The notes below the pieces were generated by a model. It ran no database searches and had not been told where the DNA came from. It worked only from the letters and a program-made list of their open reading frames with translations. Both the position numbers and the translations under genes were made by a program. A DNA stretch of 64,000 nucleotides from Candidatus Hydrogenedentota bacterium. Lineage in GTDB: Bacteria > Hydrogenedentota > Hydrogenedentia > Hydrogenedentales > SLHB01. Positions 2,879-55,376 of this stretch are shown piece after piece. How positions within the stretch are numbered: the stretch's first letter is position 1; each line of letters begins with the position of its first letter. The stretch covers positions 8,144 through 72,143 of the forward strand of contig BTWA01000032.1 in NCBI GenBank assembly GCA_045863295.1. The letters run 5' to 3'.

Positions 2879-3847
2879 ATGAAGAAGCGCGGGTTCACGC
2901 TGATTGAACTGTTGGTTGTAATCGCGATTATAGGCATTTTGGCGGCCATTCTGCTACCGGCCTTGGCGCGGGCGCGGGAAGCGGCGCGGCGAGCGAGTTG
3001 TCAGAATAATCTGAAACAGTGGGGGTTGGTGTTCAAGATGTACGCCAACGAAGCCCCAAATGCTTCCTTTCCGAATTTCCAGGCGTCTTGGGAACCCATT
3101 GTCAACTGCAGCACGGGAGCCATCGTGCAGCCGGGCGCGCCCTTTGCGGGTGCTCCGACCCACTGGCTGAATCCGTACATGCGCGCGGTGTATCCGGATT
3201 ATTTGACCGATCCGGCGATTGTGCTGTGTCCTTCCAATGCATCCCTCGACGAAGAGGACCTTCAAAACCCCACGACGGGCGAATGGGAAGCGCACAAGGT
3301 GTGCTTTGCGCCGATCCCGGGACCTCCGTTTGGTCAGTTCGATTCCGACCGGGGATTGGCGTTGTTGGCGGACAACTACTGGTATACGGGCTACCTGTAC
3401 GACCGGGTGGGCGAAACGGATCCGCAAGCGCCGATATCTATCTTGGAAAGTGCCTCGACGGAGACCGGATCGGCCCAGTTGATCTGGGGCATGACCATGG
3501 CCATCGGCAACTTCTTCGGGGGCAGCGTGGGCAACGACATCAACCTGAGCAGCGTAGCGCCGGGGATGGGAAATTCCGGCAGCAACACGATCTACCGGTT
3601 GCGTGAAGGGATCGAACGGTTCCTGCTCACGAATATCAACAGTCCCGCGAGCGGCACGGCCTCGCAGAGTGCCGTTTTTGTCATGGGCGATCGGCTAAGT
3701 ACTTATCCCAAGGAGTTCAACCACATTCCCGGCGGCGCCAACGTGTTGTTCATGGACGGTCATGTGTCCTTTATCCGTCTCCATGACAAGGCGCCCGTGG
3801 TTCCGGGCGTGGCCAAAGTGTTTGGCGAACTTTCAATACACGGATGA
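2879..3847 (+). CDS. DUF1559 / prepilin-type N-terminal cleavage-methylation protein with C-terminal H-X9-DG-like motif
   Basis: [20 protein letters not shown]...CQNNLKQ, C-terminal [24 protein letters not shown] before ATG 2879. Confidence 0.93.
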
Positions 3848-4761
3848 CCAGAATGAAGACAGTTTTATCGACGTTCAGAAACGTCCAATGGATTGCGATC
3901 GTTGTCCTGTTGGCGTCCGCAATACCGGTCGCCCGTGGTGCGGAGCCTCCCCGCATCGTGAGCACGGATGGAACCACTACGGAAACCCTGTTTGCGTTGG
4001 GCGCGGGCGAATACGTGGTTGCGCGTGATTCGGGTTCGTTGTATCCGGCCGAGGCCGCGAAACTGCCGGATATTGGTACGGGCCATCAGTTGAACGCGGA
4101 AGCGATCATCGCGCAGAAGCCCACGTTGATCATCGGGAAAGACCGCGACATGAGCAAGCCGGGGTTTCAGATTCTGGAATCCACGGGTGCGGAAGTCGTG
4201 CGTCTTTCCGCGGACGCGAGCGTGGATGCGGCCAAGGAAAACATTCGTGCCGTGGCCAAGCTGGTGGGGAAAGAGGCCGAAGGCGAGACGCTCGTCAAGA
4301 CGATAGACGACGATTTGGCCGCGCTGGCAAAGCACATGGAAGGCTTGGGCGACGTGCCGAAACCCCGGGTGTTGATGTTGTACCTTCGTCCGGGTACGGC
4401 GTTGCTTCTGGGCAATGACAGCAATGCGGCCGCGATGGCGAAATTGGCGGGCGCCAATTACGCGCTTTCGGTGAAGGGGTATCGCAACCTAAACCCCGAA
4501 GCGCTCGTTGCCGCGCAGCCTGACGTCTATCTTTGCTTTACTTCCGGCCTTGATGCGGTGGGAGGGGTCGATGCGTTCCTGGAGCAACCGGGTATCGCGG
4601 AGACTCCGGGCGGCAAGTCCAAGCGGGTTATTGCCATGGACGATTTGTTGTTGGGTGGATTCGGTCCGCGCTTGGGCAAAGCGGCATTGGAGTTGTTCGA
4701 TGCGTTGCACCATAAGCAGGGTGTATATGTGGCGAAACATGACCACACCCCGGGAACGTGA
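3844..4761 (+). CDS. hmuT: Heme ABC transporter periplasmic binding protein
   Basis: Signal peptide, RIVS...[30 protein letters not shown]. Lies in an operon with hmuUV and hemS. Confidence 0.85.
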
Positions 4762-4764
4762 CCG

Positions 4765-5775
4765 GTGAGTCACTCTCGCTATCGCACTGCGCTCATTGCG
4801 TTGGGTGTGGCTTTGCCGGTGGTGTTACTTATATCCGCCGGTTTGGGCGCTTACTTTGTCGCGCCGTGGGATATTCCTCGGGTGCTTGCCGGGTCTCACG
4901 ACGAGGCGGCCTTTCGCGTGCTTGCGTACATTCGATTTCCGCGTGTGGTGTTGAGCGCGCTCGTAGGCGCGGCGCTTGCGGTGGCCGGTGCGGGAATGCA
5001 AGGCCTGTTCCGCAATCCCCTCGCCGACCCGCAGTTGGTCGGCGTGACCGGCGGTGCGGCAGCGGGCGCTTCCATCAGTATCGTGTTTTTTGGCGCGGCG
5101 GGTCTTGGGTTGTGGACCGTGCCCGTGGCCGCTTTCCTGGGAAGCTGTCTGGCGGTGACGGTCGTGTTGAAGATTGCGCAACTTTCCGGGACCGGCCGGA
5201 CCGCGACGTTGTTGTTGACGGGTATCGCGGTTAATGCAATTGCTTTTGCCTGCATCGGTCTGATGATCACGTATGCCAACGATCAACAGTTGCGCGACAT
5301 CACGTTCTGGCAGTTGGGCGGTTTCAGTCATTCCACGTGGCCGCTTGTCCTTGCGTCGGCCGTGTTCATGGCGGTGGGCATCGTGGTCCTGTTGCGGCTG
5401 GGGTCATCGTTAAACGCGTTGGCGTTGGGCGATCGCGAGGCGTTTCATCTGGGCATTTCGCTGCCGAGTGTGCAACGGAGATTGGTGGTTGCGTCCGCGC
5501 TGGTAGTGGGCGCCGCGGTGAGTGCCGCGGGCAGCATCGGCTTTGTCGGGCTGATCACGCCCCACATGTTGCGTCTCACAATGGGCGCGGATCACCGGTG
5601 GCTGCTGCCGGCCTCGGCGCTGGGCGGCGCAATTCTGCTGACGTTGGCGGATTTGGCGGCCCGTACGATTGCCATGCCGACGGAGATTCCCGTGGGAATC
5701 ATCACGGCGATCGCGGGCGGACCGTTCTTTATCTGGTTGATTCTGCGTAACGGGAGGAGGCATAGCCATGCTTGA
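4765..5775 (+). CDS. hmuU: Heme/iron ABC transporter permease (FecCD family)
   Basis: IRFPR, QGLFRNPLADP, GSIGFVGLITPH, EIPVGIITA. Confidence 0.92.
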   Translation: MSHSRYRTALIALGVALPVVLLISAGLGAYFVAPWDIPRVLAGSHDEAAFRVLAYIRFPRVVLSALVGAALAVAGAGMQGLFRNPLADPQLVGVTGGAAAGASISIVFFGAAGLGLWTVPVAAFLGSCLAVTVVLKIAQLSGTGRTATLLLTGIAVNAIAFACIGLMITYANDQQLRDITFWQLGGFSHSTWPLVLASAVFMAVGIVVLLRLGSSLNALALGDREAFHLGISLPSVQRRLVVASALVVGAAVSAAGSIGFVGLITPHMLRLTMGADHRWLLPASALGGAILLTLADLAARTIAMPTEIPVGIITAIAGGPFFIWLILRNGRRHSHA

Positions 5776-6613
5776 GGCCGTCCAAACAGGGTATCGGGCG
5801 CACAACGGGCAATGGCTGCTGCGCCGTGTATCGCTTTCCGTCCAGCCTGGCAGGTTTTACGCGATTGCCGGAGCCAACGGCGCGGGTAAGACCACCCTGC
5901 TTCGGCTGTTGTGCGGCGAGATGCCTCCAAGCGAAGGCTGCGTCACTTGGCAGGGCCGTTCGGTCGCAACGATCTCCGCACGTCAGATGGCGCGCACGCG
6001 GGCATGCCTGGGGCAGAACCACGAAGGACAGTTTCCTTTTACCGCGTATGAAGTGGCCCTGATGGGCCGTACGCCGCATTTGCAGGGGGCGTACGAATCG
6101 GCCGAGGACCATGCCATCGTGCGGGCTGTGATGGACGAAACCGATGTGTCCGCGCTGGCGAACCGGCACTATCCCACGTTGTCGGGCGGCGAGGCAACGC
6201 GCACGCACGTGGCTCGCATTCTGGCACAGGACACGGCGGTCGTCCTCTTGGACGAGCCGACCAATCACCTCGATTTACGTCGGCAGGTGGAGACCCTTTC
6301 CATGTTCAGGCGCAAGACCGCCCAGTCAGGGATGGCGGTGGTGGCCGTGCTGCATGATTTGAATCTGGCATCCCTGTATGCGGATGAATTGCTGGTGTTG
6401 CAGAAGGGCGTGACGGTGACGCAGGGCGCGCCGCGCGATGTGCTGACGCCGGAATTGGTCCGCGATGCGTTTGGCCTGCAATGCGTTGTCTGGCAGCATC
6501 CGTCGGGATGCCCTTGGGTGGTGCCAGTGCATGACGTGTCTTTACTGTCTGAAACCGTAGACCTTGCGATGCGCGATACTGCGCACGCTGTTTTGGAGGA
6601 GAGCCTGCGATGA
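5768..6613 (+). CDS. hmuV: Heme ABC transporter ATP-binding protein
   Basis: GANGAGKT, YPTLSGGE, LLDEPTNHLD, VLHDLNLASLYAD. Confidence 0.92.
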   Translation: MLEAVQTGYRAHNGQWLLRRVSLSVQPGRFYAIAGANGAGKTTLLRLLCGEMPPSEGCVTWQGRSVATISARQMARTRACLGQNHEGQFPFTAYEVALMGRTPHLQGAYESAEDHAIVRAVMDETDVSALANRHYPTLSGGEATRTHVARILAQDTAVVLLDEPTNHLDLRRQVETLSMFRRKTAQSGMAVVAVLHDLNLASLYADELLVLQKGVTVTQGAPRDVLTPELVRDAFGLQCVVWQHPSGCPWVVPVHDVSLLSETVDLAMRDTAHAVLEESLR

Positions 6614-7671
6614 CCCCAGAATCGGCTACCTTGGATCGCGTGGAAGAACTGAAAGCGCGCTGGACCGCGTATCGAGACTCGCAGAAGCGCGCAAATATGT
6701 ACGACGCCGCGGAACAGTTCGGTGTAAGCGAGGCGGAACTCCTGGCAACTGGCACGGGCGACACCGTAACGCGATTGCGTCCGGAGTGGGGGGAGATTCT
6801 CGGCGGCCTGGAGGCCTGCGGCCACGTGATGACACTGACGCGCAACCGTTATGCCGTGCACGAGAAGCACGGGGTATATGCGCCCTACACGCACGGCGCG
6901 CATGCTTCGCTTGTTGTGAGCGAGGCCATCGACCTTCGCATATTCACGACGAAGTGGTTGTACGGATTCGCCGTGAACAACCCGTTGGGAAAGGCGTACA
7001 AGCTCAGTTTTCAGTTTTTTGACGCGCAAGGCGATTCCGTGCACAAGGTGTTTGTGCCTGATAGCGCTGCCGAAGCGTTTGAGGCCTTGCGAAATCAGTT
7101 CCTGCACGACGATCAATCGCCGGCGCTTTCGGGAGTGCAGCGGCCGGCAGCGTTTCAGGTGCCGCAAGAGAATGCGGATGCGGCTGCACTGCGCGAGGCT
7201 TGGGGCGCGATGAAAGACACGCACGACTTCTTCGGAATGCTCAAGAAGGTGAAATACGATCGCCTGCCGGCGCTGAAGCATGTGGGCGCTGTATTTGCCG
7301 AACGTCTGAGCACGACGGCTTACCGCGACGCCATGGAGTCCGCGTCGGCGTCAGGCATGCCGATCATGATCTTCGTGGGCAACACCGGGTGCATTCAGAT
7401 TCACACGGGTCCGGTGAAACGGCTTGTGGCCATGGACGAATGGTACAACGTGCTGGACGAGGATTTTAACCTGCACCTGCGCACCGGCGGCGTGGCGGAG
7501 ACGTGGCTTGTGCGCAAGCCGACCACCGACGGCATGGTGACCTCCGTCGAACTGTACGACGCGGACGGCAAAGAGATCGGACTGATTTTCGGCAAGCGTA
7601 AGCCGGGGATTCCCGAACTGAGTGAATGGCGGCAACTGGCGGAATCGCTGCCGCGTTGGGCAGGCAACTAG
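6610..7671 (+). CDS. hemS: HemS/ChuS/PhuS-family heme trafficking/degrading protein
   Basis: GVSEAELL, TRN..AVHEK.G.Y, IDLRIF, DTHDFF, IMIFVGN.GCIQIHTG, FNLHLR, FG.RKPG.PE. Confidence 0.93.
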   Translation: MTPESATLDRVEELKARWTAYRDSQKRANMYDAAEQFGVSEAELLATGTGDTVTRLRPEWGEILGGLEACGHVMTLTRNRYAVHEKHGVYAPYTHGAHASLVVSEAIDLRIFTTKWLYGFAVNNPLGKAYKLSFQFFDAQGDSVHKVFVPDSAAEAFEALRNQFLHDDQSPALSGVQRPAAFQVPQENADAAALREAWGAMKDTHDFFGMLKKVKYDRLPALKHVGAVFAERLSTTAYRDAMESASASGMPIMIFVGNTGCIQIHTGPVKRLVAMDEWYNVLDEDFNLHLRTGGVAETWLVRKPTTDGMVTSVELYDADGKEIGLIFGKRKPGIPELSEWRQLAESLPRWAGN

Positions 7672-7694
7672 GGCTATTTAATCAAACCCAGCAC

Positions 7695-7740
7695 AACGGC
7701 GTCTCTGGTTTGCTCCGGCGGATTGGGGGCGCCGTTTCTT
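7695..7740 (+). terminator. Long hairpin terminator between convergent genes
   Basis: 19-bp stem AACGGCGTCTCTGGTTTGC / GCGGATTGGGGGCGCCGTT with many G-U pairs (viable on the + strand), TCCG loop, then TCTT. Confidence 0.7.
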
Positions 7741-7748
7741 GATCTACT

Positions 7749-8966
7749 TCACACGGCCGCGCGAATCGCAATCCACGCAGCGGCGATGGCCAACGTCGCG
7801 ATGGTGACGGGCACGCCAATGCGGGCGTGATCCCGCCATGTGATGGGAATGCCCTGCCGCGCCGCTTGCTCGACTACGATGATGTTTGCAATGCTGCCGA
7901 CGATGAAGAGATTTCCTGCGAGCGTACTCGCCAGCGTGAGGATGATACCCGCCATTTCGTGCGTGGCCGCGGGGAGCAGCAGCATGGTGGCCGGCACGTT
8001 TGACACGAGGTTCGACAAGACCACGGTAATGCCAAACAGCCACGCGGGATGCTCGATGTCCATGCCCATACCTGCCAGTCTTGCCATCCCGACCGCCAGC
8101 AAGCCCGTTTCCTGCAAGGCCGCGTTCACCACGAAGAGTCCCGCGAACAACACGAGCAAGTGCCAATCGATTTCGCCAATCATCTGTCGCGAATGCATCT
8201 TCCGGCTCAACAACAGAATCCCTGCGCCGCCGAGCGCGAGCACTTCGCGCGGTGCGGGGACGAACAGGAATCCGGCCACCAGTAGCAGCAGGACTACGAT
8301 TCCCTTGCCCGTTTGCCAGCCATTGAACGGGGGTGGTTCGACATGGGAGGGCGCCGAATCGCCCCGCCATCGCCCACGGGAGAGCACTGCGATAATTGCC
8401 CACGAGATCGCTAAACCCGCAGCCGTGGGCAGGGCCGCCTCGAGCATGTAGCCGCCAAAAGGAAGGTTGAGGCTTTGGCCGATGAGCATGTTTTGCGGGT
8501 TGCCGATCAGTGTGGCGGCGGAGCCGATGTTGGTGGCGCAGGCGAGAGCGATGAGAAAGGGTTTGGGATCCAGCTTTCTCCGGGCGCAGCCCTCGGCCAG
8601 CAGCGGCGCCATGGCCAGACAAATAATGTCGTTGGTTAGAAAAGCCGAGAGCGTCGCGGACACCGCCATTACGAGCGCGAGTAATGTGGGTGGCGTGACC
8701 TCGGCAGCGGCCACCTTGCGCGTGATAGCGGCATAAAAACCACCCAACCGGAATTGCGCCGACACAATCATCAATCCGAAGAGCAGGCCCATGGTAGGCA
8801 CGTCCATCACAGCAAGGGCATGCTCCGGGGCGACGACTCCGGCCGCCATGAGGACGATGGCGCCCAACAGCGCGACTCCGGTGCGATCCAGGGCCAAACC
8901 GGGGTATTTCCCGGCGATCATGCCGAGATAGACCAGGGCAAAGACGATCAGGGTCACGGTGTGCAT
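7749..8966 (-). CDS. Ion transporter superfamily (ArsB/NhaD, YbiR-like) anion permease
   Basis: LDRTGVALLG, AFLTND, TNIGSAATLIGNPQN, SNLVSNVPA, STLAGN. Confidence 0.88.
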   Translation of the reverse strand: MHTVTLIVFALVYLGMIAGKYPGLALDRTGVALLGAIVLMAAGVVAPEHALAVMDVPTMGLLFGLMIVSAQFRLGGFYAAITRKVAAAEVTPPTLLALVMAVSATLSAFLTNDIICLAMAPLLAEGCARRKLDPKPFLIALACATNIGSAATLIGNPQNMLIGQSLNLPFGGYMLEAALPTAAGLAISWAIIAVLSRGRWRGDSAPSHVEPPPFNGWQTGKGIVVLLLLVAGFLFVPAPREVLALGGAGILLLSRKMHSRQMIGEIDWHLLVLFAGLFVVNAALQETGLLAVGMARLAGMGMDIEHPAWLFGITVVLSNLVSNVPATMLLLPAATHEMAGIILTLASTLAGNLFIVGSIANIIVVEQAARQGIPITWRDHARIGVPVTIATLAIAAAWIAIRAAV

Positions 8967-9032
8967 GTGGGCGCGGATTCTACGGTTATGGACTGACGGG
9001 TGCAAGAATAACCGGCCATTGCGCCTTGGGGG

Positions 9033-54302: not shown

Positions 54303-55376
54303 ATGATTCTTGAAGACCTGATGTACAAAGCCGTGGAAATCAAGGCTTCCGATATCCATATCAAGACGGGTAATCCGCCCATCTTTCGTATTGACGGTGA
54401 CCTTAAACGCGAAGATGGACCGGGGCTGACCAACGATCAGGTCATCCATTTGTTGGCGTCCATTGCTGCCCCCGCGGATATGGAACGCTTCAAGAAGGTG
54501 CTCGAACTGGATATTTCCTACATGCTCGGCGACATCGCGCGGTTCCGTGTAAACGCCTGCCGCGAAGACGGCGACGTGCGTATTGTGCTGCGCGTTATTC
54601 CCAAGGTGATTAAGACGATCGAAGAGTGCGCCTTGCCTGCCATCATGAACAAAATCGCCCTCGTGCGCGATGGGCTCGTTCTGGTGACAGGCGTCACCGG
54701 TAGCGGCAAATCCACCTCCCTGGCCGCCATGATCGACAAGATCAACACCACAAAGGGCGTCCACGTCGTAACCGTGGAGGACCCCCTGGAATTTGTCCAT
54801 CAGGACAAGAAATCCATCATCACCCAACGCGAAGTCGGCCACGATACACTTTCGTTTACAAATGCGCTTCGGGCAGCCCTCCGGCAGGACCCCGACGTTA
54901 TTCTGGTCGGCGAAATGCGCGACACCGAGACGGTACGCACCGCGATTTCCGCCGCGGAAACAGGTCACCTCGTATTCTCGACGTTGCATACCGTCGATGC
55001 CGTCGAGACCCTGCACCGCATCATGGATTTCTTCGAGCCGCACCAGCAACCCCAAGTGCGCAAGCAATTGGCCAGCGTATTGCGCGCCGTCATATCCCAG
55101 CGCCTCCTGCCCAAAAACAATGCCCCAGGGCGTGCAGTCGCAGCCGAAATCCTCATCGGTAACAGGACCGTTCGCGATTTCGTGGAACAGGGGAAGAGCT
55201 TCAAAGACATTACGCGCCTGATCGAGGAAGGCCGCGATCAATACGGCATGCAAACGTTCGATCAGGCGTTGTACGATCTCTACAAGAAAGGCGAGATCAC
55301 GGAAGAGGTTGCCCTTATCAATGCAACCAGCGCGCGCGATCTCAAACTGAAAATTCAGGGCATGGCCAAATCCTAG
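54303..55376 (+). CDS. pilT: Type IV pilus retraction ATPase PilT/PilU
   Basis: ASDIH, TGSGKST, EDPLEF, QREVG, LRQDPD, GEMRD, TGHLVFSTLHT, GMQTFDQ. Confidence 0.93.
   Translation: MILEDLMYKAVEIKASDIHIKTGNPPIFRIDGDLKREDGPGLTNDQVIHLLASIAAPADMERFKKVLELDISYMLGDIARFRVNACREDGDVRIVLRVIPKVIKTIEECALPAIMNKIALVRDGLVLVTGVTGSGKSTSLAAMIDKINTTKGVHVVTVEDPLEFVHQDKKSIITQREVGHDTLSFTNALRAALRQDPDVILVGEMRDTETVRTAISAAETGHLVFSTLHTVDAVETLHRIMDFFEPHQQPQVRKQLASVLRAVISQRLLPKNNAPGRAVAAEILIGNRTVRDFVEQGKSFKDITRLIEEGRDQYGMQTFDQALYDLYKKGEITEEVALINATSARDLKLKIQGMAKS

Follow-up and report, generated by a model that had tools for sequence, protein, structure and literature searches.

The window analysed here is a stretch of 64,000 nt from the genome of a Candidatus Hydrogenedentota bacterium (assembly GCA_045863295.1, contig BTWA01000032.1), in which a gene encoding a pilin-like protein of the prepilin-type DUF1559/H-X9-DG kind was found at the head of a heme-import operon. 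The assembly comprises 6.3 Mb in 88 contigs and is 96.25% complete, the window lies on contig 32, and close protein matches carry the name Candidatus Hydrogenedentes. The features of the locus, numbered from the first nucleotide of the window, are listed below.

2690-2740, + strand: AT-rich promoter-like region, inferred from motifs
2786-2873, + strand: structured 5' leader, an A-run and a long two-helix hairpin ending about 10 nt before a GGAGA ribosome-binding site
2879-3847, + strand: pilin-like gene (prepilin-type DUF1559/H-X9-DG, 322 aa), with an alternative ATG at 2864
3844-4761, + strand: hmuT, periplasmic heme-binding protein (PF01497, Peripla_BP_2)
4765-5775, + strand: hmuU, FecCD-family permease (PF01032, 301 bits)
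5768-6613, + strand: hmuV, ATP-binding cassette (ABC) ATPase (PF00005, ABC_tran; PRK13548)
6610-7671, + strand: hemS, hemS/phuS/chuS-type cytoplasmic heme-binding and heme-degrading protein (PF05171, HemS; PF06228, ChuX_HutX)
7695-7735, no strand assigned: terminator-like hairpin (19-bp stem, U-rich tail) between hemS and a convergent CitMHS-family gene

The gene junctions, read directly from the sequence, are all tight. The pilin-like gene and hmuT share an ATGA overlap (3844-3847), a gap of 3 nt separates hmuT from hmuU (4762-4764), hmuU and hmuV overlap by 8 nt (5768-5775) and a further ATGA joins hmuV to hemS (6610-6613). The closest solved structures of HmuT are all heme binders, led by 5gj3 (E-value 6e-47) and Yersinia pestis HmuT (3md9, 3e-36) and followed by BhuT, ShuT, HutB and PhuT with E-values ranging to 8e-23, whereas BtuF was reached with just 4e-9. 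HmuV scored 260.7 bits against the heme ABC ATPase model PRK13548, which is borderline for a cut-off of 261, and HemS matched the structures of PhuS (4imh, E-value 2.5e-87), HemS (2j0p, 1e-64) and ChuS (4cdp). Open reading frames (ORFs), junctions and family assignments therefore agree with the original prediction, made from the sequence of the window, that the pilin-like gene heads a tight hmuT-hmuU-hmuV-hemS operon. The terminator proposed after hemS is likewise borne out by folding of positions 7665-7760, in which the 19-bp hairpin and its U-rich tail were recovered (-34.7 kcal/mol, z = -2.79) with UUUCUUGAUCU directly after it, although this hairpin is absent from the list of a simple terminator scanner.

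Linkage of the pilin-like gene to the heme genes was examined in 135 genomes of the phylum, searched both from hemS and from the pilin-like side. HemS occurs in 14 of them; ten encode an ortholog that is 48-53% identical to the HemS of the window and five a distant paralog (30-35%), one genome having both. The order pilin-like gene-hmuT-hmuU-hmuV-hemS was found in all eight loci that retain upstream sequence, namely the window and seven others. In genome G084 the operon is divided within hmuV between two contigs, the first carrying every gene from the pilin-like one up to the start of hmuV and the second the remainder of hmuV with hemS, a split that is consistent with the same order, and in genome G065 the contig ends inside hmuU. 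Because the arrangement recurs in every orthologous locus that can be examined, it is not a product of chance, and the linkage which the original prediction expected to persist in relatives is indeed kept. Among the five proteins encoded by the orthologous hmu loci, the pilin-like protein is the best conserved, with 62-67% identity, the other four reaching 49-57%. The distant HemS paralogs of one genus (g57) belong to a different system, with ApbE, a dioxygenase and other genes as neighbours and neither hmuTUV nor a pilin-like gene beside them, and were excluded from the linkage count.

The pilin-like proteins orthologous to that of the window are well separated from the rest of the family, as they score at least 432 bits and the next match only 316 bits, while paralogs occur in 131 of the 135 genomes. 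We found 25 full-length orthologs in 24 genomes (58-67% identity) and two more cut by contig ends, giving 27 loci in 26 genomes. The gene directly 3' of the ortholog is hmuT in nine loci, a DUF6607 gene in fourteen and another gene in four. Sixteen of the full-length orthologs have no hmu genes alongside, and in twelve of these the next gene is a DUF6607 gene on the same strand (213-262 bits). The remaining downstream genes occur once each: a CbiX-domain gene followed by a PepSY_TM-like gene, a PepSY_TM gene, a twin-arginine-signal aldo-keto reductase gene and a DUF1559 paralog, the last with CbiX upstream of the ortholog.

The DUF6607 genes provide a second heme context. DUF6607 (PF20311) is the family of the haemophore RhuH, as judged by its match to the RhuH crystal structure (PDB 8xjc, annotated as 'haemophore'; E-value 2e-57). 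RhuH of Riemerella anatipestifer binds heme with a dissociation constant of 3.4e-11 M, takes it from hemoglobin and uses His96 as the iron ligand, and its gene is divergent from rhuR, which encodes a TonB-dependent receptor (PMC11967795). The heme-ligand histidine, located in the motif KHWRQDW, is invariant in 11 of 11 aligned Hydrogenedentota homologs, several of which carry lipoprotein-type signal peptides. DUF6607 was found in 15 of the 135 genomes, and in fourteen of these the pilin-like ortholog lies directly upstream; twelve of these orthologs are whole and two are represented by a contig that starts inside the 3' end of the gene (59% and 62.5% identity). The genome of the window itself gave no match to RhuH. 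A tree of the 25 full-length orthologs contains one hmu-linked and one rhuH-linked subclade.

The original prediction had noted the lack of a TonB-dependent receptor or TonB at the locus, and this observation extends to the whole genome. No match was obtained to the TonB-dependent transporter (TBDT) barrel (PF00593), the plug (PF07715) or the TonB C-terminal domain (PF03544) anywhere in the 6.3-Mb assembly, ExbB and ExbD not being part of the search, whereas all the positive controls (E. coli, Caulobacter and Bacteroides) were detected. A dedicated TonB-dependent heme receptor encoded elsewhere, which would have refuted the original prediction, was thus not found in this genome, where barrel and plug matches are absent altogether. 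Across the phylum, 39 of the 135 genomes contain TBDT barrels over the cut-off, with one to four in each. Seventeen TBDT ORFs from ten ortholog-bearing relatives were compared with heme and hemoglobin receptor models, whose cut-offs are 317 and 324 bits, and all of them fell short with 68-118 bits. Fourteen of the seventeen belong to the TOL_0244 family, nine of them over its cut-off, and these are often arranged in tandem pairs or triplets (L224-L236).

The gene that accompanies RhuH outside the phylum was examined by searching a DUF6607 alignment against one genome per species, which returned more than 581 relatives, and by annotating the neighbourhoods of the best 80 loci. Of these, 68 are proteobacterial-type, two are from Hydrogenedentota, three from Planctomycetota, five from Verrucomicrobiota and two from other groups. 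An ORF of at least 550 aa abuts the haemophore gene in 36 of the 68 proteobacterial-type loci, and 33 of these 36 ORFs contain both the Plug and the TonB_dep_Rec domains; as the scan took in 36 of the 68, a TBDT lies beside RhuH in at least 33 of the 68. Five proteobacterial RhuH loci also contain hmuTUV. In Hydrogenedentota the pilin-like ortholog fills the spot that is held elsewhere by a TBDT beside RhuH-family genes, a substitution of the kind that the original prediction had proposed for the hmu operon.

Among the loci compared, the association with heme genes is nearly confined to this orthogroup. The genome of the window contains 25 DUF1559 matches, and the neighbours of its other family members are varied (an amino-acid permease, CobW, sulfatase-like proteins, small ankyrin proteins and others), with no ABC binding protein among 25 neighbours scanned in eleven paralog regions. 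A scan of metagenomes returned 80 loci, of which three are orthologs and all three lie with heme genes (one with hmuTUV-hemS and two with RhuH, one of the three duplicating a genome locus). None of the remaining 77 paralog loci (at most 51% identity) carries relatives of HmuT, HmuU, HemS, RhuH, CbiX, PepSY or ChaN, many of these contigs being short. Similarly, no HmuT or HemS was detected by tblastn in 20 near-paralog loci of the phylum (46-51% identity), and a Pfam scan of 32 ORFs downstream of near paralogs in 15 loci gave a single heme link, ChaN in locus L129.

A further paralog is tied to a tetrapyrrole-type ligand by its regulation. The only cobalamin riboswitch in the genome of the window (95.1 bits) is located directly 5' of a prepilin-type H-X9-DG gene (TIGR04294, 24.4 bits against a cut-off of 19). 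The features on that contig (C24, locus L237) are as follows.

1501-1679, + strand: cobalamin riboswitch
1838-2674, + strand: monocistronic prepilin-type H-X9-DG gene, with recA next

As far as sequence can tell, the riboswitch would link this second H-X9-DG paralog to a tetrapyrrole-type ligand. Such a gene fits a family-wide role in which each of these proteins would serve a particular ligand whose uptake elsewhere requires a TonB-dependent receptor.

The pilin-like protein itself was assigned to its family by four models. It scored 41.8 bits against PF07596 (DUF1559, also named 'SBP_bac_10'; cut-off 23.3), aligning just to profile positions 2-28, 37.1 bits against PF07963 (prepilin N-methylation; cut-off 21.2), 37.4 bits against TIGR02532 (prepilin-type; cut-off 16.3) and 28.0 bits against TIGR04294 (H-X9-DG; cut-off 19), the last at residues 284-300. 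The type II secretion system (T2SS) major pseudopilin GspG (TIGR01710) is the best NCBIfam model (E-value 1.7e-10), although its 41 bits stay below the cut-off of 88.85. In an alignment of 69 sequences, the F, T, L and E of the class III signal G|FTLIE are invariant, the E being position +5 of the N-terminus, as are H282, D293, G294 and H295. G at +14 and P at +22, which we take to be features of a filament-type N-terminus, were also read from the sequence.

An AlphaFold2 (AF2) model built from the 69 sequences is of high confidence, with a predicted local distance difference test (pLDDT) of 91.3 and a predicted template modelling score (pTM) of 0.86, and consists of a helix (residues 8-58) and a mixed globular domain. 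The top rows of a structure aligner are ComP (Z 4.6, root-mean-square deviation 3.7 A over 102 residues), PilV (4.5), PilA4 (4.1) and EpsG (4.0), with PulG also among the rows; these Z values (4.0-4.6) are under the aligner's own level for a clear match. Foldseek gave nothing at an E-value of 1e-3 or lower against the PDB, and the pilin N-helix alone was matched. No binding-protein chain is present among the Foldseek or VIA-align rows, an absence that does not exclude that family. The model thus suggests a pilin fold with large insertions amounting to about 150 extra residues. A search of the ESM Atlas, in which only clusters of Hydrogenedentota DUF1559 proteins were returned, gave no functional lead.

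Three residues distinguish the orthogroup from its relatives. All 45 orthologs compared have W71, H95 and H321, which occur in 0%, 12% and 17% respectively of the 24 near paralogs, while the four cysteines, Y108, Y167, Y169, H282 and H295 are kept in orthologs and near paralogs alike. H95 and H321 are proposed as candidate axial heme ligands, with W71 as a possible further pocket residue. Two of the ligand sites guessed originally, the THW motif (H95) and the terminal histidine (H321), coincide with these orthogroup-specific histidines, whereas the third (AHKVC) is not conserved. A complex prediction of the pilin-like domain (residues 30-322) with mature HmuT (33-305) and heme received a score of 0.01, which is evidence neither way.

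A conserved 5' leader precedes the orthologs. A search with nhmmer found one copy in the genome of the window (E-value 6e-10) and 15 matches at ortholog loci. With a covariance model, one strong match per genome was obtained in 15 of the 135 genomes, always directly 5' of the ortholog, together with two further weak matches elsewhere. Besides the window, the leader is present at L002-L008, L016, L017, L019, L021, L024, L025 and L029. The hmu-, rhuH- and cbiX-linked copies of the ortholog are alike preceded by this leader. Within the alignment the proportion of paired cells is 73.6% (28-46% when the structure is slid as a control), compensatory changes affect 12 of 20 pairs, and the covariation (0.379) exceeds the shuffle mean (0.148) with none of 500 shuffles as high. 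These values are suggestive of pairing kept by compensatory change and not proof of it, because the aligned sequences are those of kin and also served to derive the structure. The window copy alone folds with a minimum free energy of -28.3 kcal/mol (z = -1.65), and positions 2580-2900 gave no match in Rfam. The opposite strand of the leader resembles an intrinsic terminator, having an A-run before the hairpin, and was listed by the terminator scanner. The leader could thus be a new cis-regulatory RNA or a terminator of the antisense strand; a dispersed repeat was ruled out by its single copy per genome.

Upstream of the leader, a promoter scanner matched TTAATA-16-TATACT at 2692-2719, which is not significant as one match was found against 1.9 expected from shuffles. 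By eye, TTGATT (2706-2711) and TACTAT (2729-2734) are separated by 17 nt, and a similar TTGAT...TAnnnT arrangement is present upstream of orthologs. The best matches to a 19-nt Fur consensus reach just 9-13 of 19 positions and are not positionally conserved, and no Fur site is claimed.

The genome is well equipped with filament machinery, containing eight secretin matches (seven over the cut-off), 19 matches to the T2SS-E/PilT family and one prepilin peptidase. ALAD and URO-D are present, so the organism is no obvious heme auxotroph, and heme auxotrophy was ruled out as an explanation on these grounds.

From this gene content, we consider it probable that the pilin-like protein is an envelope component dedicated to heme. 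The narrower role in which it would take the place of the receptor and capture or relay heme upstream of HmuT is favoured only slightly, and the version in which it works as part of a retractile pilus or pseudopilus, which is argued by analogy, appears doubtful. The heme-specific role is well supported by the genomic data; heme binding and a retractile-pilus mechanism are what we infer. The proposed pathway would begin with cleavage of the pilin-like protein at G|FTLIE by the prepilin peptidase. Its N-terminal helix would then either anchor the protein or allow its assembly on one of the many secretin/type-IV-filament machines, and the enlarged globular domain would take up extracellular heme, in relatives from the RhuH-type haemophore. 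Heme would finally be passed to HmuT, imported by HmuUV and handled by HemS in the cytoplasm. Passage across the outer membrane would be via a secretin, with the protein incorporated into a filament that retracts. The original prediction pointed to a gene for a PilT retraction ATPase, and this gene is real (54303-55376; TIGR01420, 450.5 bits against a cut-off of 319.1). It is generic, however, adjoining tsaD among housekeeping genes, and lies 47 kb from the operon and outside the locus. The overall interpretation offered there is therefore partly supported, by genomics for the heme linkage and the receptor-slot substitution, whereas its retraction part depends on a generic and distant PilT.

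Several observations weigh against a receptor-like role of this kind. On the side of linkage, a canonical heme gene is lacking downstream of four of the 27 orthologs, no ortholog and no TBDT was detected within 5 kb of the DUF6607 gene in genome G048, and the 23 heme-linked loci probably stand for about two to four independent gene-order events, since the relatives are kin and fall into two subclades in the tree. Ten RhuH loci of the Planctomycetota-Verrucomicrobiota-Chlamydiota (PVC) type or of other groups have neither a TBDT nor a DUF1559 profile among 35 neighbouring ORFs, so that a haemophore gene need not adjoin a receptor gene. Of the 26 ortholog-bearing genomes, 12 contain one to three TBDTs, from which it follows that the route is not strictly tied to TBDT-less genomes, and the TOL_0244-family receptors of relatives may have a heme role of their own. 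As for the protein, no recognised heme-binding domain was found in the model by Foldseek or VIA-align, and its globular domain, at about 265 aa, would be unusually large in a major filament subunit. No filament-machinery gene is present in the locus. Lastly, PilA2 of Legionella pneumophila is reported to aid the acquisition of iron independently of piliation and of processing by PilD (PMC13170364), and a pilin fold therefore does not imply a pilus mechanism.

The last three of these points also speak for the most serious of the alternatives, although it is still an unlikely one, in which the protein is a periplasmic accessory anchored in the inner membrane. The helix would then be a mere anchor and the globular domain would assist HmuT/HmuUV or RhuH in the periplasm, as a heme chaperone or as a docking factor, while heme would cross the outer membrane via a porin, by diffusion, in vesicles or through an unrecognised channel. 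Such a role is in keeping with the tight translational coupling to the gene of the periplasmic binding protein HmuT, and Riemerella RhuH is reported to travel in outer-membrane vesicles (PMC11967795). A simple anchor, however, has no need of the filament-assembly hallmarks which the N-terminus keeps in full, the invariant E+5 included; the gene sits exactly at the spot of an outer-membrane receptor beside RhuH-family genes, and the genome is rich in secretins and filament ATPases and has no TonB system.

Two other explanations are less likely. In one of them, which we consider improbable, the protein is a pseudopilin dedicated to a cargo, a type II secretion subunit which exports or displays RhuH (and conceivably HmuT in the window) and does not bind heme. 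GspG being the best NCBIfam model, though below its cut-off, agrees with this, as does the partner in 14 loci being a secreted or lipoprotein haemophore, and T2SSE ATPase genes were observed near two rhuH-linked loci of one genus. The nine hmu-linked loci, however, encode no obviously secreted cargo, ligand binding accounts better than a piston role for the two His and one Trp that are invariant in this orthogroup alone, and known pseudopilins are, to our knowledge, not cargo-specific. A starvation-induced adhesin or pilus subunit that is co-regulated with the heme genes but separate in function, for instance one acting on heme-rich particles or prey cells without handling heme, has an equally low probability in our estimate. 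It would account for the leader and the promoter-like region shared upstream of the linked copies and for the very varied genes beside the DUF1559 paralogs of the same genome. The hmuT ATGA overlap and an adjacency that is kept across two families of the phylum and two heme contexts exceed what co-regulation would ask for, and the pilin-like protein is more conserved than the transporter proteins. A heme-dedicated envelope component is consequently preferred over these three alternatives.

The operon resembles the proteobacterial Hmu/Phu/Shu/Chu loci (HmuR-HmuSTUV) in that an HmuT-type protein, a FecCD permease, a heme-type ATPase and a HemS/PhuS/ChuS protein are encoded together. Here, however, no TonB-dependent receptor or TonB is encoded in the genome and a prepilin-type DUF1559 gene comes first instead. 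We know of no described pathway of diderm heme uptake that crosses the outer membrane otherwise than through a TonB-dependent receptor, whereas in this case a complete HmuTUV-HemS importer is found in a genome without a TonB system and the gene travelling with it is pilin-like, and in relatives this gene also travels with a haemophore gene. The RhuH-RhuR-RhuA system of Riemerella (8xjc; PMC11967795) is similar in that the Hydrogenedentota homologs of RhuH keep the histidine motif and the partner gene abuts the haemophore gene. The partner in Riemerella is a TBDT, whereas 14 of the 15 haemophore genes in Hydrogenedentota have the pilin-like ortholog in this place, and the genome of the window is without a RhuH homolog. 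The N-terminal 110 residues resemble GspG, in line with EpsG and PulG being among the structural rows. GspG is, however, a protein of about 140 aa, while the 322 aa here include a sizeable globular insertion and the C-terminal H-X9-DG part. Legionella PilA2 is comparable as a type IV pilin that has been tied to iron supply by experiment, but it belongs to the ordinary major pilins, lacks a link to a transporter operon and acts independently of piliation (PMC13170364).

In competence, DNA is taken up by a ligand-binding minor pilin (ComP), a secretin, PilT, the periplasmic protein ComEA and the inner-membrane protein ComEC. The logic proposed here would be alike, leading from the ligand on a pilin through a secretin to a periplasmic binder and an inner-membrane transporter, and ComP is the top structural row, though a weak match. 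The ligand here would be heme, the transporter an ABC importer and the pilin of the DUF1559/H-X9-DG type, and the system is known from its genes alone. The filament and retraction logic is borrowed from these DNA-uptake pili, as generally known, and from the archaeal bindosome. The latter consists of sugar-binding proteins of Sulfolobus that carry a class III signal peptide and are assembled by the Bas system (PMC3047682), and thus likewise combines a prepilin-type signal with an ABC importer. In the bindosome the protein with the pilin signal is the canonical binding protein itself, whereas here HmuT is separate, the fold is that of a pilin and the host is a diderm bacterium.

A broader proposal can be put forward tentatively for phyla poor in TonB, namely Hydrogenedentota and the PVC group. 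DUF1559/H-X9-DG proteins would there be substrate-specific envelope receptors on secretin/type-IV-filament machines and do the work of TonB-dependent transporters for heme and corrinoids, and probably for further cofactors in short supply, each subfamily being tuned to one ligand. One ligand per paralog subfamily would then explain the expansion of the family to dozens of copies per genome. Few families without an assigned function are as large as DUF1559 in environmental bacteria, and in Planctopirus limnophila 68 paralogs are reported, two of them essential (PMC10632474). If such a receptor class exists, the heme subfamily could be the first with two independent contexts that define its ligand, and the hairpin leader could be a dedicated regulatory RNA. 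Heme would become a concrete ligand for DUF1559 proteins that can be tested at low cost through the Soret shift, and the finding would explain how phyla poor in TonB obtain their cofactors. It would also supply a molecular candidate for fibre-mediated uptake in Planctomycetes, where Boedeker et al. observed dextran bound to pili-like fibres (PMC5394234) and where the components involved are still described as unknown in a review of 2025 (PMC12673574).

Searches of the full-text literature found no link to a heme-uptake role for DUF1559, H-X9-DG or, outside Flavobacteriales, DUF6607. In full-text literature on pili and uptake in Planctomycetes and on pilin and heme in Hydrogenedentes, a pilin-like protein in heme uptake was not described. 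What is new here is the heme subfamily, its two contexts, the comparison with the TBDT slot and the leader.

A third heme context was observed in locus L129 (G127:C416), in which a near paralog (about 50% identity) on the minus strand is followed by these genes, identified by Pfam scan.

3447-4367, - strand: gene of 306 aa
2811-3443, - strand: ExbB-like gene
2452-2814, - strand: DUF2149 gene
1465-2448, - strand: ChaN gene

CbiX-domain proteins, which have a chelatase fold, are encoded beside the ortholog in three loci (L016, 4136-5104; L024, 2329-2958; L027, 2240-2929), once in the stead of RhuH, once after RhuH and once before the ortholog. This recurrence hints at extracytoplasmic handling of tetrapyrroles. 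At one rhuH-linked ortholog locus (L030, 1-2732, - strand), a Cas9-type gene with HNH_4, RuvC_III and Cas9_a domains lies upstream.

Some RhuH-family loci outside the phylum have neighbours of other kinds. In a metagenome-assembled genome (MAG) of Phycisphaeraceae, a prepilin-type ORF of 252 aa is located directly 5' of the RhuH-family gene (L053, 3967-4725, + strand); it scored 19.0 bits against TIGR02532 (cut-off 16.3) and matches no DUF1559 profile. Ferritin-like genes were found just 5' of RhuH-family genes in two Verrucomicrobiota MAGs (L047, 3700-4182; L051, 3230-3709), and AraC-type regulators occur near RhuH-family genes in L047 and L120.

The flanks of the operon are occupied by transporter genes which are not iron-related by Pfam, an SBF-family gene upstream (PF01758; 816-2093, + strand) and the CitMHS-family gene downstream (7749-9005, - strand, convergent with hemS). 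The DNA of the window was also found in sludge and bioreactor metagenomes from several studies.

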